Shown here: positions 3,381 through 19,700 of the stretch, one piece after another | Layout: the number at the start of each line of letters is the position of its first letter | Position numbering within the stretch: the first letter of the stretch is position 1 | Source: an uncultured virus (IMG/VR IMGVR_UViG_3300027763_000054) | Taxonomy: Duplodnaviria > Heunggongvirae > Uroviricota > Caudoviricetes | Direction: 5' to 3' (one strand) | Length of the DNA: 20,000 bases | Virus record (IMG/VR): IMGVR_UViG_3300027763_000054 | The notes under the pieces: generated by a model | What the model saw: the letters and a program-made list of their open reading frames with translations, nothing else | Told to the model about the DNA's origin: nothing | Databases searched by the model: none | Made by a program: the position numbers and the translations under genes

Positions 3381-3626
3381 ATGGGAAGTCTAACAGCTTA
3401 CTTTGAGAAGGATGCTTACCAGCCCAAATACTTTTTAGGTGATAGAGTATTTGGTCGTTGGAACAAGATACCTTTTATTGGTTCAGTGGGCAACGACACT
3501 GTGATCAGCTTAATCGAAGGCCCACGCATTTCAATACTGTTAGACCTACCTATTAAATTTAATGACCGCATACACAATGTCATTATAGTAAAACACAAAG
3601 ATATTAAACCATTGATTGAATTCTAA
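3381..3626 (+). CDS. hypothetical protein (81 aa)
   Basis: Starts 3 bp after the previous stop; its stop overlaps the convergent protease stop. Confidence 0.7.
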   Translation: MGSLTAYFEKDAYQPKYFLGDRVFGRWNKIPFIGSVGNDTVISLIEGPRISILLDLPIKFNDRIHNVIIVKHKDIKPLIEF

Positions 3627-4279
3627 GGTAAAGAAAAGGTCCACACATCGTAACCCTTTTCTTCCATGTAATCAAATGGTATCCAGCAGTATCCGTGATC
3701 TCCCCAAAATTTCCCAAAACTATTCTTAGCAAGTAATAATTTCTTGTCGAGGTCATAGCCTACCAGGCACATGGCATGTCCTGTTTTTTCATTGTTGGGA
3801 GTTGGCATTTGTATGACAGGATTTGTTATGCTGGTATATTGGAAATCGTTTGAAATAACAATCCCAAATACAACAGGCTGATTGCGATTTAAGGTTTCAA
3901 TTGTTTGTTCAATGTCCACAATTGATTTAACATTTGATATGTTACGAGAAACAGCATCTTTATAACAAGCATCAGGGGGTACGACATTAAATTTTTCAAT
4001 GTCGTACGGCCACAAGGACTCGGAACAAAGTCCAAATTTCTTAACACCATCTAATGCGTCGGATATAAAAGTACCAGTATCTTCTTCGACTGTGCCTGAT
4101 ATTAAACGAGCATTATAGTAGATGAAAAGTCGACTAATTTCAATAAAAGTTTTGGGTCTGTATTGCATGACCAACATCTCATAGGCATTTGAAATTGCAT
4201 TTGCACTACAACTACCTAGATAATATTGGTCTTCAACAACACCTGCACTTTCTCTTAAATCGACTTTAGATCGAATCAT
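3623..4279 (-). CDS. papain-like cysteine peptidase (C1A family), catalytic domain only
   Basis: VDLR...DQYYLGSCSANA (oxyanion Gln, catalytic Cys), SRLFIYYNAR, GHAMCLVGYD (His), KNSFGKFWGDHGY (Asn). No signal peptide. Confidence 0.92.
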   Translation of the reverse strand: MIRSKVDLRESAGVVEDQYYLGSCSANAISNAYEMLVMQYRPKTFIEISRLFIYYNARLISGTVEEDTGTFISDALDGVKKFGLCSESLWPYDIEKFNVVPPDACYKDAVSRNISNVKSIVDIEQTIETLNRNQPVVFGIVISNDFQYTSITNPVIQMPTPNNEKTGHAMCLVGYDLDKKLLLAKNSFGKFWGDHGYCWIPFDYMEEKGYDVWTFSLP

Positions 4280-4962
4280 TATGCTGTAAAGTAACCTGGG
4301 AATTGCTGTGTCAATCCAGTTGCAAATGCACTGATGAAAGAATTAGCACCGGCGGTAAGTTTTTCTCTAGCTGTTGTTTCAGCACTTGAATTCTTATCGT
4401 TCTTTGCTTTGATGAATTCTTTGAATCCGTCAAATACCTGAGTTAATACAGTTCTAACGTCACCAATTCTCCATAAATTATTATAGGTGTTTAGTAAGTT
4501 TGAAATGTCACTACTAACTTGGTAGTTCAACCGATCAGAAGGATCTTTAATATCATAATTGTTCTTGATATTTCTAGCAATAGTGAACATCAAGATTGCT
4601 AAAGTTCTAAAACCATAATTGAGTCTTTCGCCAAATTCAACGCCATAATATGATTTGGCAAATTCGCCAATTCCGTCAATTTGTGCCCAAAGTGTCTCTT
4701 CTGCTTTGGCAGCATTTTCTGAATCGTTGTTTAGGATATATCCAAGGACGTTCAGAAGGTTTGTATCAAACGTATCGAAATATGTTTGAAGCACTGATTT
4801 TAATTCAGCACTTGTCATTACGTTTGGAGCCTTTGGCGGCTTTACGTATTTGTTTTTCTTAACAACCGGGCCAATGGCAGGTTGATCTGCCATTGCTTGT
4901 TCTGCCAAAGCAGGATGGTTGTAGTGATGTTCTTCAATTGTATGTTTAATTACTTTATACAT
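4279..4962 (-). CDS. alpha-helical hypothetical protein, paralog of 9557-10252
   Basis: Shares N-term MYK..[SK]H.I.E.HY, central IG.F...YYG...G and C-term G...QFP..F with 9557-10252. Confidence 0.8.
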   Translation of the reverse strand: MYKVIKHTIEEHHYNHPALAEQAMADQPAIGPVVKKNKYVKPPKAPNVMTSAELKSVLQTYFDTFDTNLLNVLGYILNNDSENAAKAEETLWAQIDGIGEFAKSYYGVEFGERLNYGFRTLAILMFTIARNIKNNYDIKDPSDRLNYQVSSDISNLLNTYNNLWRIGDVRTVLTQVFDGFKEFIKAKNDKNSSAETTAREKLTAGANSFISAFATGLTQQFPGYFTA

Positions 4963-4996: not shown

Positions 4997-5614
4997 TTAG
5001 ATTATACGCCATCCGGCGCGAAATATTACTGTTATACTGGCATTAGAATTTAATGATTTGCTAGTGCTACCATCTATCTTTTCAAGTCCCGTGCCAATGA
5101 CGGTGGTACTACCACTGGCAGCTTCATTTTTAATAATATAAACTTTACCAGTTACACCTAATGGTAAAGTAACTATAGTCGGGTTAGCAGTAACACCAAT
5201 ATATCCATCACTTGCTGATGCTGTGTATGCCACTGCTGTACTGGTAGTTGTTTCAATACCAGGCTCTTGAACAGAAATAGTAACAGCACCAGTGCCGCCA
5301 CTTAATGTTACATTAGTACCTGCTATTAAACTGGTAACACCTGTGTTGTTGATTGTAAATGCCGAAGCCGGGCCTGTACTGGTTAAACTAGTAACACTAA
5401 TGCCAGTACCAGCAGTGGGTGTAATACCTGTTACCACTGAGTTACCATTTAATTTCAATGCCGAAGTAGCGTTAATGGTATCAAATGTAACTGATGCCGT
5501 AGTTGCTACACTCTGTGGTATAGATATAATGCCGTTAGCATCAACAGAGATATTTGAACCAACCTCTAGTACACCTTGTTCAGTTGTAGATCCTAATGGA
5601 AATAGATATGACAT
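4997..5614 (-). CDS. short fibre/adhesin-like protein (N-terminal beta-hairpin motif, shaft repeats, C-terminal head domain 'B')
   Basis: STTEQGVLEVGSNISVDANGIISI; repeats VTGITPTAGTGISV and VTSLIAGTNVTLS; head YTA..SDGYIGV..IVTLP...GKVYIIKN...IDG...W.II. Confidence 0.75.
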   Translation of the reverse strand: MSYLFPLGSTTEQGVLEVGSNISVDANGIISIPQSVATTASVTFDTINATSALKLNGNSVVTGITPTAGTGISVTSLTSTGPASAFTINNTGVTSLIAGTNVTLSGGTGAVTISVQEPGIETTTSTAVAYTASASDGYIGVTANPTIVTLPLGVTGKVYIIKNEAASGSTTVIGTGLEKIDGSTSKSLNSNASITVIFRAGWRII

Positions 5615-5626
5615 TTTGTCTTCCTT

Positions 5627-6106
5627 TTATAAAATGTTCCATCGTGAACTGTCAAACACGAGTATAAACCCAGCGTCAGTTCCTAATGTTTTAAAACTAC
5701 TGCCATCTATGGTTTCGCTTCCGTTGCCCTGAACCTTGCAATTGCCAGGCGCCTGATTTTTTACATAGTAGACTCTACCAAGCTCTCCTTTGGGTAATGT
5801 TAGTGTTATATTATTAGTCGTAGCACCAACATAATAGTCATCTTCTGTGATGGTGTAATTTACACTGGTTAATTTAACCTTTACTTTTTTACAACAATCA
5901 TCTTCACCACCTGTTACTGATAATACACCCTTGGGTGTAATAGACAAACCGCTGCCAACTTGAACAACGCCAAGACTGGTAGTACTGGCTTCCTCACAAT
6001 CTAATGTTACTGGAACGATGCCAGCTGGTTGGATTACAGCTGGCGGTGGATTTTGCTTTAGTGCTTTCCCCGCCAATACTGTTTGTGGTAGTCTATTGTA
6101 GGCCAT
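5627..6106 (-). CDS. short fibre/adhesin-like protein (beta-hairpin motif + DDCC + head domain 'B')
   Basis: ASTTSLGVVQVGSGLSITPKGVLSV; YTITEDDYYVG..ITLTLP..GRVYYVKN...TIDG...WNIL. Confidence 0.75.
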   Translation of the reverse strand: MAYNRLPQTVLAGKALKQNPPPAVIQPAGIVPVTLDCEEASTTSLGVVQVGSGLSITPKGVLSVTGGEDDCCKKVKVKLTSVNYTITEDDYYVGATTNNITLTLPKGELGRVYYVKNQAPGNCKVQGNGSETIDGSSFKTLGTDAGFILVFDSSRWNIL

Positions 6107-6115
6107 ATTAAATTA

Positions 6116-6517
6116 TTATAAAACCAACCATTGTGTACCGTTATACACAAATGTCAATGAACCATATGGCGCATTAATAACTGCTGTTGCGGCACCATCA
6201 ATGGTACCGGCAGTTGGTGTGATAGTAATTGGTGTTGCTGGCGCGGCCAAACCTAGACCATCTTTGATTGTAAATGACTGGCCGGTTACGCCCGCTGGCA
6301 ATGTTACTGCTACAGCAACTGGTCCTGGTACTTGAATGCTGACGATATCATCTGTTGCGGCTACTACAGTTACTGGTGTAGCCACAGCATTTCTAATTGC
6401 AACAATTGGTACACCGCTTGCGCTAATTGTAACTACCTCGGCACCGGTGCCTGTTGTTGGTGTTACTGTGATACCTGCTCCGGCAAGTATCGAGCGTGGA
6501 TTATTTGTATATGACAT
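6116..6517 (-). CDS. short fibre/adhesin-like protein (one shaft repeat + head domain 'B')
   Basis: SILAGAGITVTP; TDDIV..VTLPAG.TGQSFTIKDGLG.A...PITI....TIDG....IN.PYGS....YNGTQWLVL; AAGGAG SD. Confidence 0.75.
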   Translation of the reverse strand: MSYTNNPRSILAGAGITVTPTTGTGAEVVTISASGVPIVAIRNAVATPVTVVAATDDIVSIQVPGPVAVAVTLPAGVTGQSFTIKDGLGLAAPATPITITPTAGTIDGAATAVINAPYGSLTFVYNGTQWLVL

Positions 6518-6549
6518 GTTATGTCTCCTTTAATTAAATGCGTGGAAGA

Positions 6550-6924
6550 TCATGATATAGTCTTCCAATTTGTGCCGTCATACACTACCTGTATATGACT
6601 GTATCCACCATTGAGAATCGCAAAGGAAACACCATTAATGGTTTTGCCTCCGGCACTCGTAATAGTAATTGGATTCGTTTGAGCCGTCCCAGAATAATCT
6701 TTTATATAAAAACTACGCTGTAATACAACTGTGTTCGGGTTATTATCATCGTCGTCGTGAGTTTTATCTTTATTACCACAGCAGTCTTCACCAGTGGCAT
6801 TTCCGTTTGCTGGTAGTATCACTGAAGCTGGACCCGATGTTATATTGATGAAAACTACTTCATCTGTTGTTAGTATGTTATACGGTGTTGTTGTGACTAT
6901 TTTGGTGTTTAAATTTAATGACAT
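6550..6924 (-). CDS. stand-alone head domain 'B' protein with an acidic/Cys-Cys insertion
   Basis: PYNILTTDEVV..VILP [NGNATGEDCCGNKDKTHDDDDNN] ..FYIKDYSG.A.TNPITI....TING...YDGTNWKTI. Confidence 0.75.
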   Translation of the reverse strand: MSLNLNTKIVTTTPYNILTTDEVVFINITSGPASVILPANGNATGEDCCGNKDKTHDDDDNNPNTVVLQRSFYIKDYSGTAQTNPITITSAGGKTINGVSFAILNGGYSHIQVVYDGTNWKTIS

Positions 6925-6934
6925 AATATTTTCC

Positions 6935-7507
6935 TTAACTGATTCTGGTCAGTGTAATTTTTGCACTAAAGCCACTTGGGCGAATTGGTGTTATTGCGGC
7001 TGGCAACGCCACCAAACTTACTGTGGCGTCTGGGCTACTCCAACACATTTCGATGCTACTGCCTGCTGCCATATCCAATGTAAAATTACCGCTTACAAAC
7101 AGTTCACTGAGCGTGTTAATTAATTGTAGTTCCTGTCTTGATCCTGGCAGGTCAGCGTTGTTATATCGTAGCCAAATACTAATGCTACTTGTACCACCAG
7201 CTGTTTTGTTTAGAATCACTGTGAACTGTTTGTTATAGACTCCGGCGTTGGCTACAACTATCTGCGTTGGATCTCCAACCAATACACTTACTCCATTGGT
7301 AGGATTTGGTGGATTTGGTGTCACATCAAAAGTTATAAGATTAATAAGATTGGCACCAGCACTATTCTGCGTGGTGCTACTGGAGACAAATCCATAGTTG
7401 AGTAGGCCGGTACTGCCAGATATCACACCATCAGTAATACTGATGCCTGCGCCAACTTTGACAATGCCAAAGTCTGTGGTCGATGATAATGGTGCTTTGT
7501 ATGACAT
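6935..7507 (-). CDS. fibre-like protein with a C1q/TNF-like (BclA C-terminal-like) head
   Basis: N-term SSTTDFGIVKVGAGISITDGVIS; head YG...S.TTQ..ITFD...IVVANAGVYNKQF...IWLRYN...FTLDMAAGSSIEMCW...ITLTRI. Confidence 0.7.
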   Translation of the reverse strand: MSYKAPLSSTTDFGIVKVGAGISITDGVISGSTGLLNYGFVSSSTTQNSAGANLINLITFDVTPNPPNPTNGVSVLVGDPTQIVVANAGVYNKQFTVILNKTAGGTSSISIWLRYNNADLPGSRQELQLINTLSELFVSGNFTLDMAAGSSIEMCWSSPDATVSLVALPAAITPIRPSGFSAKITLTRIS

Positions 7508-7516
7508 TGTATTCCT

Positions 7517-8071
7517 TTACAATTGAACTATAGTGCATCTAACACTAGGTGTTGCTGGTCTACTCGGTAGAATCTGTGCTACATTTGCCAACAGTTGCAT
7601 AGCGGTATCGAGACTTTGCCAAGCAATCTCTACAACGTCTCCGGCACTAAGCGCCAGCGTATAATTCCACGCTGCCAATAACGGTTCATTGGTAGTGTTA
7701 AGAGTTAGCGTAGTATTAGTATCTGGATAGTTTAGACTGTTTCTTAAAATCCAAATATCTATTTGATCCAATCCAGCATCCGTTTTGTCTATCTGTGCAG
7801 TAAATTGTAAATTGTAGTTGGCAGTTTTACTTACTTGTATCTGTGACGCTGTTAACAATGTTATACCAACATTAATGGCAGCATTATTAAATGTCATTTT
7901 ATTAACAGCACTGGCCACTGGATTTGTTTGTGTTATTGTACTGTAAAAATATGCTTGGTCAAACAGAGCAATTGGTGTTACATTTAATACCCCATTAGAT
8001 ATAGTCAGGTTAGTGCCTGGCTGTATCATACCTGGAGTACTAGCAGTAGCCAATGGTTCTCTATATGACAT
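7517..8071 (-). CDS. fibre-like protein with a C1q/TNF-like (BclA C-terminal-like) head, paralog of 6935-7507
   Basis: Start MSYREP at 8071 (TAATG overlap); AYFYSTITQ..MTFN...IQVSKTANYNLQF...IWILRN...LALSAGDVVEIAW...TIVQL. Confidence 0.7.
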   Translation of the reverse strand: MSYREPLATASTPGMIQPGTNLTISNGVLNVTPIALFDQAYFYSTITQTNPVASAVNKMTFNNAAINVGITLLTASQIQVSKTANYNLQFTAQIDKTDAGLDQIDIWILRNSLNYPDTNTTLTLNTTNEPLLAAWNYTLALSAGDVVEIAWQSLDTAMQLLANVAQILPSRPATPSVRCTIVQL

Positions 8072-8520
8072 TAGACAATATTCCATTCTGTTCCATTAAA
8101 GATGAATTGTAAACTGCCATAGTTAACATTAATCGTAGCAGTACTAGCATCAACTAATTCACCACCAGTGCCTTGAATAGTAATTGGATTGTTTGCCGCA
8201 TCGCCAAAGCAATCTTTAACTATATAAACCGTGCCTAGTATGCCTGCGGGTAATGTAATTGTGACTACGCCATTGGTCAACACACATAAAAAATAATCAG
8301 TTGGCAGTGCTGTATACGTTGCAGTAGCAACATCTGTGACAGCTACTGGACTGGGATTACCTGCTGGTCCTGGAGGTCCAGGAGGTCCCGGTGGACCTAC
8401 ACCACCTCCACCATTTACATAAATGCTACCTGGTCCGCTTTCGTTGTACACCGGCGCAATTGGCCGAAAAATTGGTCTAATTATTCTCCTAATAATCGGT
8501 CGTCTATAAAAATGCATCAT
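8071..8520 (-). CDS. collagen-like (GPP) short fibre with an Arg-rich N-terminus and head domain 'B'
   Basis: ATGA overlap with the upstream stop at 8517-8520; RRPIIRRIIRPIFRP; GPPGPPGPPGPAG; YTALPTDYFL..TITLPAG..GTVYIVKD..G.A.NNPITI...INVNYGS...FNGTEWNIV. Confidence 0.8.
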   Translation of the reverse strand: MMHFYRRPIIRRIIRPIFRPIAPVYNESGPGSIYVNGGGGVGPPGPPGPPGPAGNPSPVAVTDVATATYTALPTDYFLCVLTNGVVTITLPAGILGTVYIVKDCFGDAANNPITIQGTGGELVDASTATINVNYGSLQFIFNGTEWNIV

Positions 8521-9041
8521 CGTATTGCCCATGTTGATTTAAACTGGTCAATCTTGGCCAGCACTGGAGGAATCATTTTTTCAAATATTTTCCCCTCATT
8601 TTTGTTCTTAACTTCTACATCTTCTGCAACAGGCTCTACAGGTACAGGACTAATTTGCGTTACTTCATGGTCAACCACTGGTTCAACGCTAACTGGTACC
8701 AATTCATCAGTTAATTTTGTTTCTTCAATAATTGGTTTTACTTCTTGTGGTTTAACACTTACAATGGTTGCTTCATCATTCTTCACCACATTAGGTTCTT
8801 TTTGTACTGGCCCATTTAAAAATTCACCAAGTGCCGTGGCACGAGTAACAATATCTACTTCTGTGGGATAATGCGGGAATGGTGGATATGCTAGCTTGAT
8901 GCCGCGAGTTCGCCAAGCAACATCGGCCTCGGATAGCCAACGATTATGATCTTGCGCTCGTTTATCAATATATTCGTTAATAACAAGTTCTCTTGCCATG
9001 CGAAGAAGTTCAAGTCTTGATGTTACATTATTGTTACTCAT
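8517..9041 (-). CDS. hypothetical protein; N-terminal domain paralogous to 12811-13047, followed by an acidic Pro/Val-rich tail
   Basis: RLELLRMARELV...P.FP.YPTEVDIVTRA..L.EFLN versus RLELLKMSKEML...F.PFPTEEEIIKKA..LNEFIN; GGAG SD. Confidence 0.8.
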   Translation of the reverse strand: MSNNNVTSRLELLRMARELVINEYIDKRAQDHNRWLSEADVAWRTRGIKLAYPPFPHYPTEVDIVTRATALGEFLNGPVQKEPNVVKNDEATIVSVKPQEVKPIIEETKLTDELVPVSVEPVVDHEVTQISPVPVEPVAEDVEVKNKNEGKIFEKMIPPVLAKIDQFKSTWAIR

Positions 9042-9050
9042 TGATTCTCC

Positions 9051-9302
9051 TCATCTAAGTTTATCTAAAGCAATTACTGCTATGGTTGCAAAACTGGATA
9101 ATACAGCAACCGCAATAGTAATAACTTTGGCCATAAATTTCTTCTCTTCTTGAAGTTCATTTTTTATTTTTCTAATTTCTTCATCATACTCTGCCAATTG
9201 CTGTTCATAACTCAAATGACGAGCAATGCCAAGCTCTACATGAACTGCTAGATTTTCTTTTTCTATTTCTTCTATGTTGTCAAGTTTTTCAAATTCTTTC
9301 AT
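9051..9302 (-). CDS. coiled-coil protein with a C-terminal TM helix, paralog of 9299-9553
   Basis: IEKENLAVHVE motif; hydrophobic VITIAVAVLSSFATIAVIAL; ends DKLR. Confidence 0.75.
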   Translation of the reverse strand: MKEFEKLDNIEEIEKENLAVHVELGIARHLSYEQQLAEYDEEIRKIKNELQEEKKFMAKVITIAVAVLSSFATIAVIALDKLR

Positions 9303-9553
9303 TTTATTTTATCCACTAATAAAATTGCCGCAGGTATTAATACTGCAAGTAATGTACCTCCGGCGACCATGGTTTGTATAACACTTTGCCTAGTAGAATC
9401 ATTTTCTATAACAAAGTGATCAATTTCTTTTTCAACAGCGTCAATACGATGCTCCAGTGCATTATATCGTTGTATAGAAATTTCCACATGCGCGGCCAAG
9501 TTTTCTTTTTCAATGTTGTCTGGGCTAGGAATAGTTGTTCGTGTTACAATCAT
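9299..9553 (-). CDS. coiled-coil protein with a C-terminal TM helix
   Basis: IEKENLAAHVE..QRYNALE; hydrophobic MVAGGTLLAVLIPAAILLV; ends DKIK. Confidence 0.75.
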   Translation of the reverse strand: MIVTRTTIPSPDNIEKENLAAHVEISIQRYNALEHRIDAVEKEIDHFVIENDSTRQSVIQTMVAGGTLLAVLIPAAILLVDKIK

Positions 9554-9556
9554 ATT

Positions 9557-10252
9557 TTATACCGTAAATGATAATGGAAATTGTGCAATAACTCCTCTGC
9601 TGAGAACATCAGCAAGACTGGTATAGCCGCGATTAATATGATTAGGAATACCAGTGATTACTAACTTGCTTATGTTGTCTAAACTAATGGCGTCAGCTGA
9701 TTCATCAGATGCAAATCTTGCTTTAATATTATCTGTCCAATATGCGGCCAAATTGGTAAACATATCTACTAAAAGTTCTTTAGGGAAATTTGATGGGTTT
9801 AATTCATTTAGATAATCTGCCAATTCATTGATTGGACTGATCCATAGTGTTCTAAATTGATTCAAGTCTTTTCCGTTTTGCACAGTGTGTATTGTGTCAA
9901 TGCCAATCCTAGCATACGCGGCAAGCAATGCACCAATTTTATAGCCTGCAGTCATTCCATAATATGGAACAAAAAAATCACCAATAGAGCTTGCTGCCTT
10001 GATTAGTCGTCCTTCGACTTGGCCAGCAGAATCAAGTTTGCCTTGCCTGGCAACAGAAAGATTTACCAATCCTAGAGCAAACTTTGTCCATATTGTTCTG
10101 GAATCCATGCGAAATGTCAATGTTGATTCATTTATTACAAATGTAGGCAACGGACCCGTAAATGGTTGTGCTGGGATGTCAATGCTACCTGCACTAGGTG
10201 GCACCACACCATAATGTTCTTCTTGTATATTATGTGAAACTCGTTTATACAT
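9557..10252 (-). CDS. alpha-helical hypothetical protein, paralog of 4279-4962
   Basis: R.IW...; IGDFFVPYYG..AG.KI..LL; W....ELADYL..LNP; LAD....GVIAQFP..F. Confidence 0.8.
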   Translation of the reverse strand: MYKRVSHNIQEEHYGVVPPSAGSIDIPAQPFTGPLPTFVINESTLTFRMDSRTIWTKFALGLVNLSVARQGKLDSAGQVEGRLIKAASSIGDFFVPYYGMTAGYKIGALLAAYARIGIDTIHTVQNGKDLNQFRTLWISPINELADYLNELNPSNFPKELLVDMFTNLAAYWTDNIKARFASDESADAISLDNISKLVITGIPNHINRGYTSLADVLSRGVIAQFPLSFTV

Positions 10253-10254
10253 AA

Positions 10255-10452
10255 TCAGTAGATATTAATTGGATTAGCAATTTGGTTAATTCCAGCGGCA
10301 ATTCCTGTATTTGTAACTGTCTGATTAGACAATTGACTTTGATATGCATTTATACCCAAGTAATTGTAGTATGGATTGTATGCTCCATAATATGGATATG
10401 GCATAATTGCACCAGGGCTCCTATAATAAGGATAATAGTAACTTCCAAACAT
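10255..10452 (-). CDS. Tyr/Pro-rich microprotein carrying the C-terminal motif of the 186/188 aa proteins
   Basis: MFGSYYYPYYRS..PYPYYGAYNPYYNY followed by INAYQSQLSNQTVTNTGIAAGINQIANPINIY; GGAG SD. Confidence 0.75.
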   Translation of the reverse strand: MFGSYYYPYYRSPGAIMPYPYYGAYNPYYNYLGINAYQSQLSNQTVTNTGIAAGINQIANPINIY

Positions 10453-10471
10453 TTAAATCTCCATGTTTATT

Positions 10472-10501
10472 AAAAAACAGGCTTGATAGACAAGCCTGTT
10501 T
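10472..10501 (-). terminator. intrinsic terminator inside the minus-strand operon
   Basis: 11-bp inverted repeat AAACAGGCTTG (10475-10485) / CAAGCCTGTTT (10491-10501) with a 5-nt loop; A6 at 10472-10477 is a U-tract on the minus strand. Confidence 0.75.
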
Positions 10502-10505
10502 ACTT

Positions 10506-10670
10506 TTACCAGTAGTAAGGGTAGCCGCCGTAGCCGCCATACCCACCGTAACCGTATCCACCATATGGTAGGCCAATGAAGCCTCCATAGTATGGGTAAC
10601 CGATTCCAGCGGCCAGGTAAGGACGTTGAAATCCTCCCCACCCTCTATAACCTAATCCATTAAAAAACAT
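10506..10670 (-). CDS. Gly/Tyr-rich 54 aa microprotein (not in ORF track)
   Basis: MFFNGLGYRGWGGFQRPYLAAGIGYPYYGGFIGLPYGGYGYGGYGGYGGYPYYW*; perfect AAGGAGG SD 7 nt upstream of the ATG; terminator directly downstream. Confidence 0.85.
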   Translation of the reverse strand: MFFNGLGYRGWGGFQRPYLAAGIGYPYYGGFIGLPYGGYGYGGYGGYGGYPYYW

Positions 10671-10686
10671 CTTTGTTCCTCCTTAA

Positions 10687-11253
10687 TCAACCAATGGTTG
10701 TTGGATTTGCAGACTGTACAGTACCTGCCATACTGTTGGTGTTGACTACTCGCTGTCCAGCAACTGAACTTTGAAATGCGTTAGTAGCATTAAAATTATC
10801 AGCTGTTTGTACAGCGGCATTTAACCCACCATATGCCAGGCCTAAACTTGCATAATTCAACCCACCACCAATTAAGGCAGTGTTTGTATTGATTAATGCG
10901 GTATTCAAGTTTTCTGTGTTTAGATCATTAATTAAATTACGATCACGTTCAGCTTGGCGCATTGCTTCTCGTTGAGTAGACATTGCTGTCAATCCAATTA
11001 TGGCATCAGTGCGACCTGCTGACAACATTGTTTCAAGAGTTTTCTTCGAAGCTGCCGCCTTAAGATCAGACTGAGCAGCCGCATTTCTTAATGCCACTTG
11101 CATGGCACGATTATTCACGTCTGCTGTTTGGGCTACCTGTAATTTGTAACCCTCAAATACGCTATCAGCTACCTTAGTTTTTGTTGATTCAATTTCTGTA
11201 GCCAATGCAAAGAATGGATCAATGGTGATAGTTGGAGTTGTTCCGTCAGCCAT
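10687..11253 (-). CDS. Ala/Thr/Asn/Gln-rich 188 aa protein, tandem paralog of 11267-11827; candidate major structural subunit
   Basis: Colinear with its paralog (DPF.AL..EIE.TKTKV.DS.FE.YKLQVAQT.D.NNRAMQVAL; LNT.NLNTALINTNTALIGGG.NYA.LGLAYGG.NAA); AGGAG SD. Confidence 0.85.
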   Translation of the reverse strand: MADGTTPTITIDPFFALATEIESTKTKVADSVFEGYKLQVAQTADVNNRAMQVALRNAAAQSDLKAAASKKTLETMLSAGRTDAIIGLTAMSTQREAMRQAERDRNLINDLNTENLNTALINTNTALIGGGLNYASLGLAYGGLNAAVQTADNFNATNAFQSSVAGQRVVNTNSMAGTVQSANPTTIG

Positions 11254-11266
11254 AGTATTCTCCTAA

Positions 11267-11827
11267 TTAACGAATTGTTGTTGGACTAGCTGTTTGTGTA
11301 GTACCAGTCATAGTACCAGTGTTAACTACGCCTTGTTGAGCTAATTGGCTTTGGAAAGCATTGATAGCACTTGTAGTGTTAGCACTTTGGTAAGCGGCAT
11401 TCACGCCACCGTATGCAAGACCAAGACCAGCATAATTTACGCCACCACCAATTAAGGCTGTATTTGTATTGATCAAAGCTGTGTTTAGATTTTGTGTGTT
11501 TAATGCGTTGATTAGACCACGTGTTAATTCGCCTTGTTCCATGATTGTGCGTTGAGTAGACATTGCTGTCTGTCCAATTGCGGCATCGGTACGAGCGGCA
11601 GCTAACATAGTCTGTAATGTACCATCAGCAACAGATTGCTTTAGGTCAGCCAATGCAGATGTGTCATGTAATGCCACTTGCATAGCACGGTTGTTGATGT
11701 CGTTTGTTTGAGCGACTTGTAGTTTGTAATTTTCGAAAATGCTATCAGAAACTTTGGTTTTTGTAGCTTCGATTTCTCTTGATAATGCGTAAAATGGGTC
11801 TAGCGTAAAGCTTGTCATATCAGCCAT
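11267..11827 (-). CDS. Ala/Thr/Asn/Gln-rich 186 aa protein; first structural gene of the island
   Basis: AGGAG SD; paralog of 10687-11253; C-term INAFQSQLAQQGVVNTGTMTGTTQTASPTTIR. Confidence 0.85.
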   Translation of the reverse strand: MADMTSFTLDPFYALSREIEATKTKVSDSIFENYKLQVAQTNDINNRAMQVALHDTSALADLKQSVADGTLQTMLAAARTDAAIGQTAMSTQRTIMEQGELTRGLINALNTQNLNTALINTNTALIGGGVNYAGLGLAYGGVNAAYQSANTTSAINAFQSQLAQQGVVNTGTMTGTTQTASPTTIR

Positions 11828-11844
11828 ATTATATCTCCTAGGAT

Positions 11845-11873
11845 GTTAAGAATGATTATCATTCATTCTTAAC
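11845..11873. promoter_or_regulatory. 11-bp inverted repeat enclosing a Fur-box-like core; candidate operator or 5'UTR hairpin
   Basis: GTTAAGAATGA-ttatcat-TCATTCTTAAC; minus strand 11851-11863 reads AATGATAATCATT. Confidence 0.5.
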
Positions 11874-11925
11874 TACTTAGAAGCAAAATCAGCTGATGCT
11901 ATATTGACATGGTCGACGGTCGACT

Positions 11926-12558
11926 TCAGTTAGAAAACAATGCTAACTGTGTTCTGTTTCTTACTTTATACTTTTTCAGGATACTGGTAATGTGAAGCTT
12001 AACTGTACTTTCGGTAATGTTAAGCATACGAGCAATGGACTTATTGCTAGCGCCACGTTGTTGTATAATGGTTAGGATTTCTCGCTGACGTGGCGTAAGT
12101 TGAATCTCATTGAGTGTTTTAATTTTAGGTTCGACGAGTTTCTGTATAGTTGGAGAAATATATACTATTCCAGTTTTTAAAGACAAAAAAATCTCGGATA
12201 AATGATCTAAATCATCTGATCCGAGTATGGCGTTTACATCGTCTCTGGCAATAGTTGATTTTATTTGTCTTATATTGGCGGAGTTATCAAATACTACTGC
12301 TACTTTTGGCCCAATGTTTTCTGGCATATATTTTTTAAAACAACAAATTACTGCCTTGGCAATGTGAAGATCATCAAATAATTGTGTGTAATTTTGTTTG
12401 TATAGATCACCTGAATCTAGGATTATTAAATTTGGATTATTATTTAACGATAGCTCGTCTAACACTTGATTAACGGTTGAGTAATACTCAACTGTCACCC
12501 CAATTGGTATGTGGGCCAGTGTATTTTTTGTTACAACTGCGGCCTTTAATTGGTTCAT
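11926..12558 (-). CDS. LuxR/NarL-family transcriptional regulator (degenerate receiver-like N-domain + GerE-type HTH)
   Basis: C-term LTPRQREIL....GASNKSIARMLNITESTVKLHITSILKKYKVRNRTQLA; N-term PNLIILD and YISP; AGGAG SD. Confidence 0.9.
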   Translation of the reverse strand: MNQLKAAVVTKNTLAHIPIGVTVEYYSTVNQVLDELSLNNNPNLIILDSGDLYKQNYTQLFDDLHIAKAVICCFKKYMPENIGPKVAVVFDNSANIRQIKSTIARDDVNAILGSDDLDHLSEIFLSLKTGIVYISPTIQKLVEPKIKTLNEIQLTPRQREILTIIQQRGASNKSIARMLNITESTVKLHITSILKKYKVRNRTQLALFSN

Positions 12559-12810
12559 AAATTTCTCCTATCATACATTTGTATGGTTTATATATTTTGT
12601 AAATCTTACTAAAATAATTATAAACATTTACCATGGAGAACACAATAGCAATGTACTATGTACGATAGTATATATTTGCTAAAAGTTGCTTTATGGCAAA
12701 ATGCGTTTGGTCATTGAACACATAGATGGTCGTACAAGTAAGTTCTGCGTTTATAATTAATTTTGTAGAACACAAGTTTTACGCACACACTCAAACACAG
12801 GAGAACTATA

Positions 12811-13047
12811 ATGAGTACAATTGCCCCTAACGGCTACACCATTCGTCTTGAACTACTCAAGATGTCAAAAGAAATGCTAGAGCAAGACTGGCATGCACAT
12901 CGCGAAGCGGTAATGACAGATTACCATACCAAAGCTTCAAAAGACGAAAATGTTGTACCACCTGCCCCAACCTTCAAACCTTTCCCTACCGAGGAAGAGA
13001 TTATCAAGAAGGCCAAGGTTCTAAACGAATTTATCAATACAAAATAA
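12811..13047 (+). CDS. hypothetical phage protein ('IRLELLKM' type), paralog of the 8517-9041 N-domain
   Basis: AGGAG SD after an ACAC-rich leader; motifs YTIRLELLKMSKEML and FPTEEEIIKKA. Confidence 0.8.
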   Translation: MSTIAPNGYTIRLELLKMSKEMLEQDWHAHREAVMTDYHTKASKDENVVPPAPTFKPFPTEEEIIKKAKVLNEFINTK

Positions 13048-15222: not shown

Positions 15223-17322
15223 ATGAAACTCAAAACACTTACCTTAGCTATCGCATTGGCTCTCTCTGCTGGCGCCAATGCACAAGTATTTGGCAACCAA
15301 GAAACTGTTGCTACAACAAGTTACCTCAAGGCAGTAGGTGCTCCACAAGCGTGGGCCCGCGGCTTTACAGGCAAGGGTATTATCATTGGTGTTGTTGACA
15401 ACGGCTTTGACTTAAAGCAAACAGACATTAAAAAGAATGTCCTAGCATTTGCAAACTTCAGTTCTACTGCTGTAGTGGTAGGTGTACATGGTACACAAAT
15501 GGCCAGTATTGCCGCAGGCGTAGCAGACGGCAATGGTACAGTTGGTGTTGCTCCAGATGCCAAGTTGGTCCTTGCACAAGCAAACAGTACTGTAAGTTCA
15601 TCAACTGGCTTAGCAGGCACAGGCATCAGCATGGCTTCAGTGCTTAAAGGTATGGCCTGGGCTGAAGCACAAGGTGCCAGCATTATTAATCTGAGCCTTG
15701 GTTCTACATACGATTCCACTTTCCAATCTAAGACTGTTATGATTGCCCCGGGCATTTACAATGCCCCTGATTCATACACAAACAAAATTGGTGGTCTTGA
15801 TTACTTGTATGGTTCATCTCTTAAAGATGTGGCGGCATTTGCTGGTACTACCAAGAACGCTGTCATTGTTGCCGCAAGTGGAAACTCTGCTACACCTTTT
15901 GCACAATTCCCGGGTGCGTATGCTACACAAACAGATGCCAATGGTAATCTATTGCTTGGCGGCCGTGTTATCATTGTTGGCAATGTCAAAGGCGACGGCA
16001 AGGGTGGTTGGATCATGAGTGAGACTAGTAGTGCGGCTGGTAGCTTATGCTCAAACATTGTTGCTAGTGTATGCCAAGACAAATACTATGTCAAAGATTT
16101 TTATGTTGTAGCACCAGGTACAGGTATCTTAGGTGCTATTCCCGACAGTGCCAGAACAGCCGCAAGTATCACAGCAGGTAAGACAAATGGTGTTGGTGGG
16201 GTCAGTGGTTCTAGTCCAGCGGCCGCCGTAGTGTCAGGTGGTATTGCACTGATGAAGCAAGCATGGCCTCAGTTAAGAGCCAATCAGCTTGTTTCTCTGG
16301 TATTGAATACTGCTACCCCATTGGGCGATAGTAATGTATATGGTAAGGGTATGGTGAACTTTGACAAGGCTACCCAACCAATGGGTCAGCTTACACTTGC
16401 CAACCTTACCAAACTTACTGGCAGTGGTATTACGGGTACAGCAGTTGTTGGTACAGGTATTGTTACAAGTGGTTCGTCAAGTTTAGGTACCAGCTCTGTG
16501 TTGCAGAACACCCAAGTTGTAGACACCATAGGACGCAACTATACAGTTGACATGACAAAGGCAGTTGGTTACAACAATGCACTAAGTTACCAATATGGTA
16601 CACCTTGGATGGCTTTTGGTGGTTCAAACTATCGACAGGTTGTTACACCAGTTGGTCGAGATGGCTTGCTGTCAATCATGGCCAGTGACTCAGGTTCGTC
16701 TAGTCAATACGAATGGCAACAGACTGATGATACTCGTTTGAGCATCGAGGTAGGTGCATTGTCAGAACGCAATGGCTTCTTAGGTACACATGGTGGTGGA
16801 GCAATGTCGTTTGGCGGATCTAATACTGCATGGACCGGCCTTGGCTTTAGCAAGAACATTGTTGGTAGTACAAACTTAATTGGTAGTTATACAGTTGGCT
16901 TGACTCGCACAGGCAATGTTCAAGGCAGCATGGTTCAACTTGACTCTAGCGTAATTGCTGACTCATGGAAGCTGGGTGTAGCACAAAGTAATTTGGCGTT
17001 CAGCGGCAAGACTAAGGATACATTAAGCCTTACAGTAGCATCACCTGTGGCAGTACGTAAAGGTTCAGCTACAGTTATGGGTGTAACAGGTTACACCTAT
17101 ACTGACAATGCAGATGGTACAACAGATGCCAATCCAGTTATGCAAACAGAACGTGTGAGCCTGGCTCCCAAGGCACGTGAAATGAACTTGGTACTGGGCT
17201 ATACTGTAACACAAAATAACACGTCATCAATTGGTGTTAACGTAGTTAGACAGTTCAACGCAGGCGGACAAGCTGGCGTACAAGGCACAGGCGTATCAAT
17301 TATGGCACGTAGCGTATTTTAA
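15223..17322 (+). CDS. secreted subtilisin-like (S8) serine peptidase with a beta-rich C-terminal domain
   Basis: Sec signal MKLKTLTLAIALALSAGANA; Asp GVVDNG, His HGTQMASIAAG, INLSLG, oxyanion AASGN, VVAPG, Ser SGSSPAAAVVSG; C-terminal amphipathic strands ending in Phe. Confidence 0.9.
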   Translation: MKLKTLTLAIALALSAGANAQVFGNQETVATTSYLKAVGAPQAWARGFTGKGIIIGVVDNGFDLKQTDIKKNVLAFANFSSTAVVVGVHGTQMASIAAGVADGNGTVGVAPDAKLVLAQANSTVSSSTGLAGTGISMASVLKGMAWAEAQGASIINLSLGSTYDSTFQSKTVMIAPGIYNAPDSYTNKIGGLDYLYGSSLKDVAAFAGTTKNAVIVAASGNSATPFAQFPGAYATQTDANGNLLLGGRVIIVGNVKGDGKGGWIMSETSSAAGSLCSNIVASVCQDKYYVKDFYVVAPGTGILGAIPDSARTAASITAGKTNGVGGVSGSSPAAAVVSGGIALMKQAWPQLRANQLVSLVLNTATPLGDSNVYGKGMVNFDKATQPMGQLTLANLTKLTGSGITGTAVVGTGIVTSGSSSLGTSSVLQNTQVVDTIGRNYTVDMTKAVGYNNALSYQYGTPWMAFGGSNYRQVVTPVGRDGLLSIMASDSGSSSQYEWQQTDDTRLSIEVGALSERNGFLGTHGGGAMSFGGSNTAWTGLGFSKNIVGSTNLIGSYTVGLTRTGNVQGSMVQLDSSVIADSWKLGVAQSNLAFSGKTKDTLSLTVASPVAVRKGSATVMGVTGYTYTDNADGTTDANPVMQTERVSLAPKAREMNLVLGYTVTQNNTSSIGVNVVRQFNAGGQAGVQGTGVSIMARSVF

Positions 17323-18991: not shown

Positions 18992-19068
18992 GCGGGATTA
19001 GCTCAGTTGGTAGAGGCGAGTGCTTGCCAAGCACTAGGTCGTCAGTTCGAAACTGATATCCCGCTCCA
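18992..19068 (+). tRNA. tRNA-Gly(GCC)
   Basis: Acceptor GCGGGAT/ATCCCGC, anticodon arm AGTGC-TTGCCAA-GCACT, T-loop GTTCGAA, encoded CCA; one extra G after the D-stem. Confidence 0.9.
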
Positions 19069-19100
19069 AATAAAATATTTTTAAAAGTTTCAAAAAGTAG

Positions 19101-19129
19101 TAGACAAGACATAGGTTTTGTCATATAAT
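19101..19129 (+). promoter_or_regulatory. sigma70-type promoter
   Basis: TAGACA-17bp-TATAAT. Confidence 0.7.
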
Positions 19130-19207
19130 AGAAACATACTGTAGCAGTACAGTAAAAGGATAAAAGTAAGTGTTGTAAAAATACAACAAAGAAATTTCAA
19201 AAAGTGG

Positions 19208-19236
19208 TTGACATAGAAGCGAAAGCAGTATATAAT
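19208..19236 (+). promoter_or_regulatory. sigma70-type promoter for the tRNA array
   Basis: TTGACA-17bp-TATAAT; palindrome TGTTGTAAAAATACAACA at 19171-19188. Confidence 0.9.
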
Positions 19237-19303
19237 AACCACTTAACAGCAAGAAATCATTGTGTTACTTGCTAAGAGTTCTTTTACAATTTAGCGGCAT
19301 TGT

Positions 19304-19378
19304 GCTCGATTCGTCTATCGGTTAGGACGCTGGCCTTTCACGCCGGAAAGAGGGGTTCGATTCCCCTATCGAGTACCA
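19304..19378 (+). tRNA. tRNA-Glu(TTC)
   Basis: Acceptor GCTCGAT/ATCGAGT, anticodon arm CTGGC-CTTTCAC-GCCGG, T-arm AGGGG-TTCGATT-CCCCT, CCA. Confidence 0.93.
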
Positions 19379-19522
19379 TTTGTTTAGTGTTATCAAGGTA
19401 TCGTGTATGGACGCATACACTATGCGGGCCTAATCCGCCGGAAAAAGGTCCTAACATAACTGCATCGGCTTTGACCGGGAAGCACCCGACGTCTAAATTT
19501 GCACGATAGCACTAAACAAATG
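19379..19522 (+). ncRNA. putative structured ncRNA (~145 nt) between tRNA-Glu and tRNA-Leu
   Basis: 18-bp closing stem 19377-19394 / 19505-19522 (one G-U) enclosing internal hairpins. Confidence 0.55.
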
Positions 19523-19530
19523 CATTATAT

Positions 19531-19616
19531 GCGAGTATGGAGAAATTGGTAGACTCAAGAGACTTAAAATCTCTCGCTGTAATGGCATCCCGGTTCGACC
19601 CCGGGTACTCGCACCA
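19531..19616 (+). tRNA. tRNA-Leu(TAA)
   Basis: Acceptor GCGAGTA/TACTCGC, anticodon arm AGAGA-CTTAAAA-TCTCT, long variable arm, CCA. Confidence 0.93.
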
Positions 19617-19623
19617 AGTTTTA

Positions 19624-19700
19624 GGAGTGGTAGTTCAGTTGGTTAGAATACCGGCCTGTCACGCCGGGGGTCGCGGGTTCGAGTCCCGTCCACTCCGCCA
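19624..19700 (+). tRNA. tRNA-Asp(GTC)
   Basis: Acceptor GGAGTGG/CCACTCC, anticodon arm CCGGC-CTGTCAC-GCCGG, T-loop GTTCGAG, CCA. Confidence 0.95.

Follow-up and report, generated by a model that had tools for sequence, protein, structure and literature searches.

Why should proteins of very different size, encoded close together by one phage, end in the same stretch of some thirty residues? The question is raised by a 20,000-nucleotide stretch of the uncultured virus record IMGVR_UViG_3300027763_000054 (Caudoviricetes; "the window" below denotes this whole stretch), for which an earlier sequence-only reading had described three proteins with a common C-terminal tail and had proposed that this tail is a beta-forming, possibly amyloid-like assembly tag. 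The three minus-strand open reading frames (ORFs), coding for proteins of 186, 188 and 65 amino acids (aa; Table 1), were found as described, with the C-terminal ends that had been quoted, and a purine-rich ribosome-binding site could be read from the sequence in front of each. Over the last 32 residues the tails align without gaps, as had been claimed, with 20/32 identities between the 186 and 188 aa proteins, 17/32 between the 186 and 65 aa proteins and 15/32 between the 188 and 65 aa proteins, and 13 of the 32 positions are identical in all three. Since the tail of the 65 aa protein scored 80 against the 186 aa protein, and the same tail shuffled 5000 times reached a mean of 15.7 and a maximum of 50, the likeness is not due to chance. 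A profile built from the three tails matched just these three ORFs in the window, with a single copy of the motif per chain.

The proteins had been presented as three unlike ones. The 186 and 188 aa proteins are, however, full-length paralogues (126/187 residues, or 67%, identical end to end, E 1e-87; 106/156 identical outside the tail), so that the tail has two carriers, i.e., a long protein, of which the window has two copies, and the Tyr-rich protein of 65 aa. That the latter amounts to the tail joined to a Tyr/Pro segment was borne out by profile-profile alignment of the long and short families, in which only the tail aligned (33 columns, probability 97.5, E 7e-12). Because nothing outside the tail aligns between the families, the idea that the 65 aa protein is a truncated long paralogue was rejected in general, although it may hold for three loci (L037–L039).

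Across 140 distinct tails, the conserved columns are S (96%), Q (84%), N (91%), G (99%) and Q (92%), and charged residues make up about 2% of the tail; the motif is real, but the consensus quoted for it earlier is narrower than the family. The tail consists of two parts, namely ten residues at the end of a helix and then an uncharged run of about 22 in which Gln, Asn-x-Gly and Gln occupy fixed places. Its distance from the C-terminus, said to be the same throughout, is indeed so in the window (7–8 residues beyond the last conserved Gln in the three proteins) and in most close relatives, but not in a more distant clade, where the short protein often extends past the motif (8–36 residues).

Scanning with the 186 aa protein returned 43 viral loci that share the order of a gene cassette. 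A regulator comes first, then one long gene or two and, frequently, a Gly/Tyr ORF without the tail; next come the short carrier and a 231 aa family, and after these small proteins of hydrophobic character, a 174 aa family, several small products of tail-fibre-like type and a protease. The short carrier is present in 38/43 of these close loci, and of the other five (L012, L022, L027, L028 and L042) three stop at or near the gene. The distant clade (about 25–35% identical) added 81 further loci, 79 of which contained a match to the tail profile (121 ORFs, all on the cassette strand and above 12 bits, where reversed decoys reached 10.3; L048, L051 and L052 had contributed to the profile that later found them), and every one of these 121 matches was a long subunit, a fragment of a long subunit or a short Tyr-rich protein. 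The short carrier was seen in 26/53 non-redundant distant loci; the distant counts below refer to 43 loci, the 10 of the 53 with less than 5 kb downstream being left out. In one distant locus (L055, 961–1185) about 7 kb separate the short carrier from the long gene downstream of it, so some of the "missing" short genes may lie beyond the fetched flanks.

A tag borne by several unlike cargos had also been suggested, but the profile searches gave two carriers and no third. With a broadened profile (140 tails), every match above the 12.3-bit decoy level in records of 131, 139, 259 and 385 kb was a cassette gene. Among proteins of 154–2000 aa, the short-protein alignment retrieved just nine, of 180–187 aa (weak evidence, with 8000 candidates scored), and among those of 30–163 aa the best 120 of 236 matches were all a Tyr-rich N-terminus plus the tail. 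The single tail match in the complete 385 kb genome is the long protein, in a cassette of regulator, long gene, tail-less Tyr-rich ORF and 174 aa family; at least one complete genome can dispense with the short protein. No match to the 186 aa protein, the 65 aa protein or a distant homologue was found in 50,697 records of cultured or annotated phages, nor any in cellular genomes with the distant alignment; the close alignment hit only two short contigs of one metagenome bin there (L172 and L173), which are probably phage DNA in the bin. The relatives are uncultured giant phages of the T4 type (250–400 kb) with capsid proteins of two different sizes, a T4-type major capsid gene being present in 7/11 records tested, including 4/4 complete genomes (250–400 kb). 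The window would be T4-type by virtue of these relatives; the record nearest to it is a 17.7 kb fragment that has neither the capsid gene nor the long gene.

Within a locus, the two tails have changed together. Among 36 non-redundant sequences (39 close and 3 distant ones with both carriers, identical short tails collapsed), the short tail scored 86 when compared with the long tail from its own locus but 60 when compared with those from elsewhere, with a maximum of 72.75 in 20,000 permutations, a test that ignores kinship. As judged from additive distances, such a preference should be absent under a single old duplication, so that parallel change, conversion or re-duplication is needed to account for it. 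In the 50 rows compared (the five close loci listed above stand outside these counts), a one-residue insertion is present in both tails in 8/8 rows and in neither in 42/42, and a two-residue insertion in both in 7/7 and in neither in 43/43; the SQ/SA state agrees in 47/50, and L006, L013 and L014 share a Gln-to-Asn change in both tails. The insertion loci need 4–6 changes on the trees of the regulator, the long-protein body, the 231 aa family, the 174 aa family and the protease (LuxR, 4 changes over 7 loci; 231 aa, 6 over 8; 174 aa, 5 over 7; protease, 4 over 5), and their grouping as one clade was rejected in approximately unbiased (AU) tests both for the tree of long proteins without their tails (p-AU 0.003) and for that of the neighbouring 231 aa family (p-AU 1e-38), L040, L043, L048, L051 and L052 being excluded. 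Since the insertion loci do not form one clade by their flanks, the cassette is a mosaic in which flanks are exchanged and the tail pair moves as a matched unit.

The tail, conserved in homologues as the earlier proposal required, behaves as a module under selection at the protein level. Four-fold sites are identical at 179/450 positions (40%) within loci vs. 37% between loci, and since synonymous sites are therefore near background, recent gene conversion is unlikely. In L037–L039, the short protein and the second long paralogue have the same type of tail and additional residues upstream of it in common, which points to an older capture of the tail by recombination. In the distant clade, the short carrier was present in 0/8 loci with a lengthened long tail vs. 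21/35 with one of usual or shorter length; drift in length where no short protein was found is what release from a constraint on register might look like.

The long protein was modelled by AlphaFold2 (124 sequences, mean predicted local distance difference test (pLDDT) score 82.8) as a single helix spanning residues 11–164, with pLDDT mostly 75–98; a helix of about 150 residues would by simple arithmetic measure roughly 22 nm. The first ten residues of the tail are modelled as the end of this long helix, which contradicts the proposal that the whole motif is beta-forming. No Pfam, PHROG, NCBIfam or PDB family fits the long protein, and an Atlas search with the 186 aa protein gave matches to unnamed clusters only. 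The Pfam match to Baculo_gp41 (9/124 sequences, best E 0.024) was treated as chance, a suspected likeness to GerPA/GerPF is without Pfam support in the long or short family, and the R-body (Reb) family is not among the Pfam matches listed for the 124 long-protein sequences or for the window proteins. A second copy of the long gene is present in 14/36 non-redundant loci. All eight loci with the one-residue insertion (L007–L010, L018, L023, L024 and L026) have one long gene, and 14/28 others have two. On the body tree, two long paralogues often cluster by locus (e.g., L003, L015, L017, L020, L035 and L004), which suggests that the body was repeatedly duplicated or converted, and their tails keep two distinct types.

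For the short protein, an Atlas search with the 65 aa sequence yielded no usable feature match, and the Pfam family P11_C (4/37, best E 0.087) was again treated as chance. The earlier reading also made the 65 aa protein an adaptor to Tyr-rich cross-linking partners, but a Pfam scan of 31 window proteins turned up neither a peroxidase nor an enzyme of similar kind. A complex prediction with three copies of residues 95–186 and the 65 aa protein scored 0.00 twice; the controls were likewise unfolded, so that it counts neither way.

The answer we favour, and which we hold to be moderately probable, is that the tails pack together: the long protein would self-associate by means of its C-terminal segment, which would also admit the paralogue and the short protein. 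The helical long chains would line up as a rod and be joined at their C-termini, each uncharged stretch of about 22 residues lying alongside its counterparts in neighbouring chains, probably in the form of short beta strands; the assembly may be a finite cap or an open cross-beta stack. Entry of the 65 aa protein and of the 188 aa paralogue would depend on their offering that segment, for which reason tail length and register would have to match those of the main subunit, and the short protein would thereby put its Tyr-rich arm at the end of the rod. What is built might be a fibrous accessory structure that a LuxR-type switch of its own turns on late in infection; like the tail-to-tail contact and the beta structure, we infer its oligomer size, timing and location. 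The paired changes fit this proposal because co-assembly predicts them, and the 385 kb genome, which keeps the tail on the long protein alone, fits a role in self-association.

Several observations weigh against packing of the tails as just described. Structurally, the tail has a pLDDT of only 44–55 in the long monomer model and of 55–71 in the short-protein model; the latter (pLDDT 53) found no match in a fold search of the PDB, and the long-protein model reached at best E 7.1 against viral structures. Helical hydrophobic periodicity (3.65) is confined to residues 11–60, residues 61–164 being without it, and a canonical coiled coil or rod packing is therefore not established. As to the pairing, the terminal Pro state is concordant in just 43/50 rows, and the tails lie 375–503 bp apart in the close clade, so that linkage can carry both. 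The tail insertion may have a single origin, independent contrasts (3/3 on well-supported branches) are too few for a test, and the 231 aa tree mixes paralogues, with five of its rows apart from or overlapping the short gene. Codons of shared residues are identical in 394/814 cases (48%) within loci vs. 43% between them (uncorrected p=0.002), and old gene conversion may lie behind the match. Finally, no short carrier was seen in 22/43 distant loci with at least 5 kb downstream, and the Fisher test on length drift in that clade (p=0.004) ignores kinship.

The amyloid proposal can be carried further than packing of the tails, in that each tail would be a one-rung cross-beta stacking unit and the long subunits would form an open-ended filament or mat with helical bristles of about 22 nm. 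The 65 aa protein would then polymerise along with them as a spacer or nucleator, its Tyr-rich arm sticking the filaments to one another. Expression would be conditional, through the LuxR-type regulator acting at a variant late promoter, and the resulting coat or matrix would lie around progeny virions or inside the infected cell. We think such a phage functional amyloid unlikely. A helix running into a single motif would make unbroken 4.8 Å stacking awkward, this being the only ground for reading the short protein as a spacer. In curli (PMC10192328), the major subunit CsgA and the minor subunit CsgB share a Gln/Asn/Gly-rich motif and co-assemble; likewise, a minor protein here shares its motif with the major subunit, and a LuxR-type regulator heads the locus. 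Curli subunits, however, are described there as arrays of a repeat of about 23 residues forming a beta-solenoid, whereas the chains here have one motif on a long-helix body (11–164), and the QX10Q kernel reported for curli is found in 21/140 tails vs. QX12-13Q in 124/140. Moreover, curli subunits are secreted through CsgG/CsgF, and no Csg family or export gene was found among the 31 window proteins, and no signal-peptide-like N-terminus was seen by eye.

Paired change would also be expected if both tails tracked one receptor, i.e., if the long and short proteins plugged into the same groove of a third protein such as a beta-sandwich trimer of the cassette or a virion protein. We regard such docking as doubtful, to much the same degree as the amyloid. 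The tail is unfolded in the long and short monomer models, as a docking peptide might be, and the cassette encodes several small tail-fibre-like domains (in 39/43 distant loci). A precedent is found in PMC12357932, where BclA and F-Anchor dock on ExsF by their exosporium leader and where, in the F-ENA/F-Anchor/F-BclA system of Firmicute spores, a 7-residue N-terminal peptide docks on a DUF4183 trimer. In common with that system, a short terminal peptide shared by fibre subunit and accessory would let the accessory join, with collagen-like neighbours nearby, but the window has a segment of about 32 residues, C-terminal, on a helix and in a phage. No DUF4183, BclA-C or exosporium-leader (TIGR03720) match was found by Pfam for the 31 window proteins or by NCBIfam for 10 of them plus 3 homologues. 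Against a receptor within the cassette, the insertion state does not follow the LuxR, 231 aa, 174 aa or protease trees, and the complete genome G005 keeps the tail without an adjoining beta-sandwich gene in the cassette.

It is less probable again, and indeed improbable in our view, that the shared tail is a mere by-product of origin, the short gene having taken its tail from the long gene, with occasional re-copying by recombination, so that linkage keeps the pair and matching is unneeded. L037–L039 do point to tail capture, the small within-locus excess in codon identity (48% vs. 43%) would suit re-copying, and the tails are less than 510 bp apart. Nevertheless, with synonymous sites near background the amino acids are still conserved, so that selection holds both tails, and no mismatched pair was seen for either insertion in 50 rows even though adjacent genes recombine. 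Conversion would moreover explain the origin of the match, not its upkeep across proteins that are about 30% identical. The slightest chance of all goes to a C-terminal signal for an enzyme or for sorting (e.g., by the papain-family protease or into the head), with which the C-terminal position, the absence of a predicted fold and the presence of a protease in 20/44 close sequences (the 43 close loci plus the window) and 20/43 distant loci would agree, since the protease is missing from about half of the loci and its tree does not follow tail type, the motif is often internal in the distant clade with up to 36 residues after it, and thirty conserved residues with strict spacing would be long for a cleavage site.

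Two further systems resemble the proposed packing of the tails in part. In the BASS pairs (10.1101/2020.01.06.895854), neighbouring and otherwise unrelated Bell-domain and NLR genes have a short common motif that is matched within the pair; the window tails are likewise matched between partners of neighbouring genes, and co-aggregation of matched motifs is the mechanism that we propose for them. A BASS motif would also form cross-beta fibrils and cross-seed that of its partner. The BASS pair is, however, described as cellular signalling, with the motif N-terminal on the NLR and C-terminal on the neighbouring effector, whereas here it is C-terminal or near-terminal on both carriers, in a phage structural cassette. 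No NLR/NB-ARC/NACHT or Bell match was found by Pfam among the 31 window proteins, and the G-phi-Q-phi-G pattern reported for BASS3/RHIM/PP motifs occurs in 0/140 tails, a looser phi-N-phi-G occurring in 46/140.

The fibritin of phage T4 is a long helical rod on the virion, a parallel trimeric coiled coil nucleated by a C-terminal foldon. It is comparable as the helical rod of a T4-type phage in which a small C-terminal segment, in our case a proposed one, sets the register of the oligomer. The foldon is not known to be shared with a separate micro-protein; the window proteins have no match to fibritin or foldon by Pfam, PHROG or PDB sequence profile, and the cassette lies among non-structural genes in the window.

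That a shared motif lets a minor protein join a polymer is a known principle, but neither this motif nor its two carriers nor the cassette has a counterpart among the families of Pfam, PHROG, NCBIfam or PDB. No published description of the tail or the cassette was found in the literature covered, outside which most subscription journals lie, and a jumbo-phage review (PMC7824862) has 0 occurrences each of LuxR, collagen and amyloid. The motif is real, conserved and, in the literature covered, undescribed, on two protein families, with good comparative evidence for a matched pair. The natural matched variants (no, one-residue or two-residue insertion) provide a ready specificity test with synthetic peptides, for which phage culture is unneeded; if the tails do cross-seed by type, they would constitute an orthogonal assembly tag of 30 residues and a first handle on what this widespread cassette builds.

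Table 1. Features of the cassette, with positions in the window, strand and the evidence for each.
Feature	Position	Strand	Evidence
Shared tail of 186 aa protein (last 32 residues)	11270..11365	-	Profile, AlphaFold2 model, alignment
Shared tail of 188 aa protein	10690..10785	-	Profile, alignment
Shared tail of 65 aa protein	10258..10353	-	Profile, profile-profile alignment, pairwise alignment
Long subunit, 186 aa, one predicted helix ending in shared tail	11267..11827	-	ORF, AlphaFold2, 776 homologue clusters
Long-subunit paralogue, 188 aa, 67% identical full length	10687..11253	-	Sequence comparison
Short carrier, 65 aa, Tyr/Pro-rich N-terminal half (14 Tyr) and shared tail	10255..10452	-	ORF, alignments, composition; 236 homologue clusters
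Gly/Tyr-rich protein, 54 aa, tail-less (13 Tyr, 19 Gly)	10506..10670	-	ORF, composition; family in 16/44 sequences by BLAST clustering
Long-gene leader: late-promoter-like TAAGTA core (11874-11879), 11-bp inverted repeat (11845-11855 / 11863-11873), strong ribosome-binding site (11834-11839)	11834..11879	-	
LuxR/GerE-type regulator heading the cassette	11926..12558	-	Pfam GerE E 5.7e-16; family in 35/44 sequences
231 aa conserved cassette protein, no known family	9557..10252	-	Family in 39/44 sequences
Two proteins of about 84 aa with hydrophobic C-terminal stretch, and 174 aa protein	8517..9553	-	Families in 32/44 and 33/44 sequences
Seven small proteins; short Gly-Pro-Pro repeat in one, weak matches of tail-fibre/baseplate type in several	4997..8532	-	Family in 35/44 sequences
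Papain-family (C1) protease closing the cassette	3623..4279	-	Pfam Peptidase_C1 E 2.8e-14; in 20/44 sequences

The window is phage DNA by its PHROG matches and four tRNAs, and the minus-strand block runs from the LuxR/GerE-type regulator to the papain-family protease (Table 1). CsgD, the LuxR-type regulator at the curli operon, is the best NCBIfam match of the window regulator, far under the cut-off (55.8 vs. 250 bits). Upstream of the first long gene, a TAAGTA core occurs in 19/36 loci (shuffles: mean 2.9, maximum 10), with TAACTA in 9 and TAAATA in 5 of the 36, and 31/36 have any of these reported cores; TAAATA precedes many structural genes in relatives, and TAARTA is rare in the window (6 sites vs. 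39.5 expected). The canonical T4 late promoter TATAAATA was rejected, with 0 sites in the window and a place upstream of the first long gene in 3/36 loci. By its sequence, the leader of the long gene, in which a hairpin comes after the core, may be a variant, conditional late promoter needing the LuxR-type protein, with a LuxR operator. Boxes of the AGTACT/TACTGA type recur upstream of the regulator and the long gene in many loci (by eye, uncounted). One RNA run (share 0.08) placed 26 contigs on the window, two of them about 90% identical over the long genes and derived from a relative; being uninformative on transcription or its level, it was left unused.

Among the small cassette proteins at 4997–8532, PHROG baseplate and tail-fibre matches range from E 2.5e-6 to 2e-3, and a Pfam match to the T4 gp9/10 N-terminal domain (E 1.6e-4) stays under the cut-off. 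Four of them (4997–5614, 5627–6106, 6935–7507 and 7517–8086, all minus strand) have a second short motif of the Ser/Thr-Thr-x-x-Gly-hydrophobic-x-Val-Gly type, near the N-terminus or internal, which resembles a tail-fibre-type repeat; some also have a common C-terminal domain. These fibre-like genes are bracketed by two distant paralogues, the 231 aa protein and the product of 4279–4962 (minus strand; 21% identity, E 8e-9), which may resemble the four-helix Bacillus proteins often mis-named acetylglutamate kinase and have no library match in Pfam, PHROG or NCBIfam.

The N-terminal 75 residues of the 174 aa protein (8517–9041, minus strand) match a 78 aa protein outside the cassette (12811–13047, plus strand; 30% identity, E 2e-9), neither having a Pfam or PHROG family. 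After the cassette of the viral locus L052, a P-II-like nitrogen regulator and an ammonium-transporter-like gene were seen by eye (11261–12822). Finally, the plus strand of the window encodes a 699 aa subtilase (15223–17322; Pfam S8, E 2.4e-28), whose start resembles a signal peptide and whose long C-terminal part is uncharacterised, and tRNA genes for Gly, Glu, Leu and Asp at 18992–19700.

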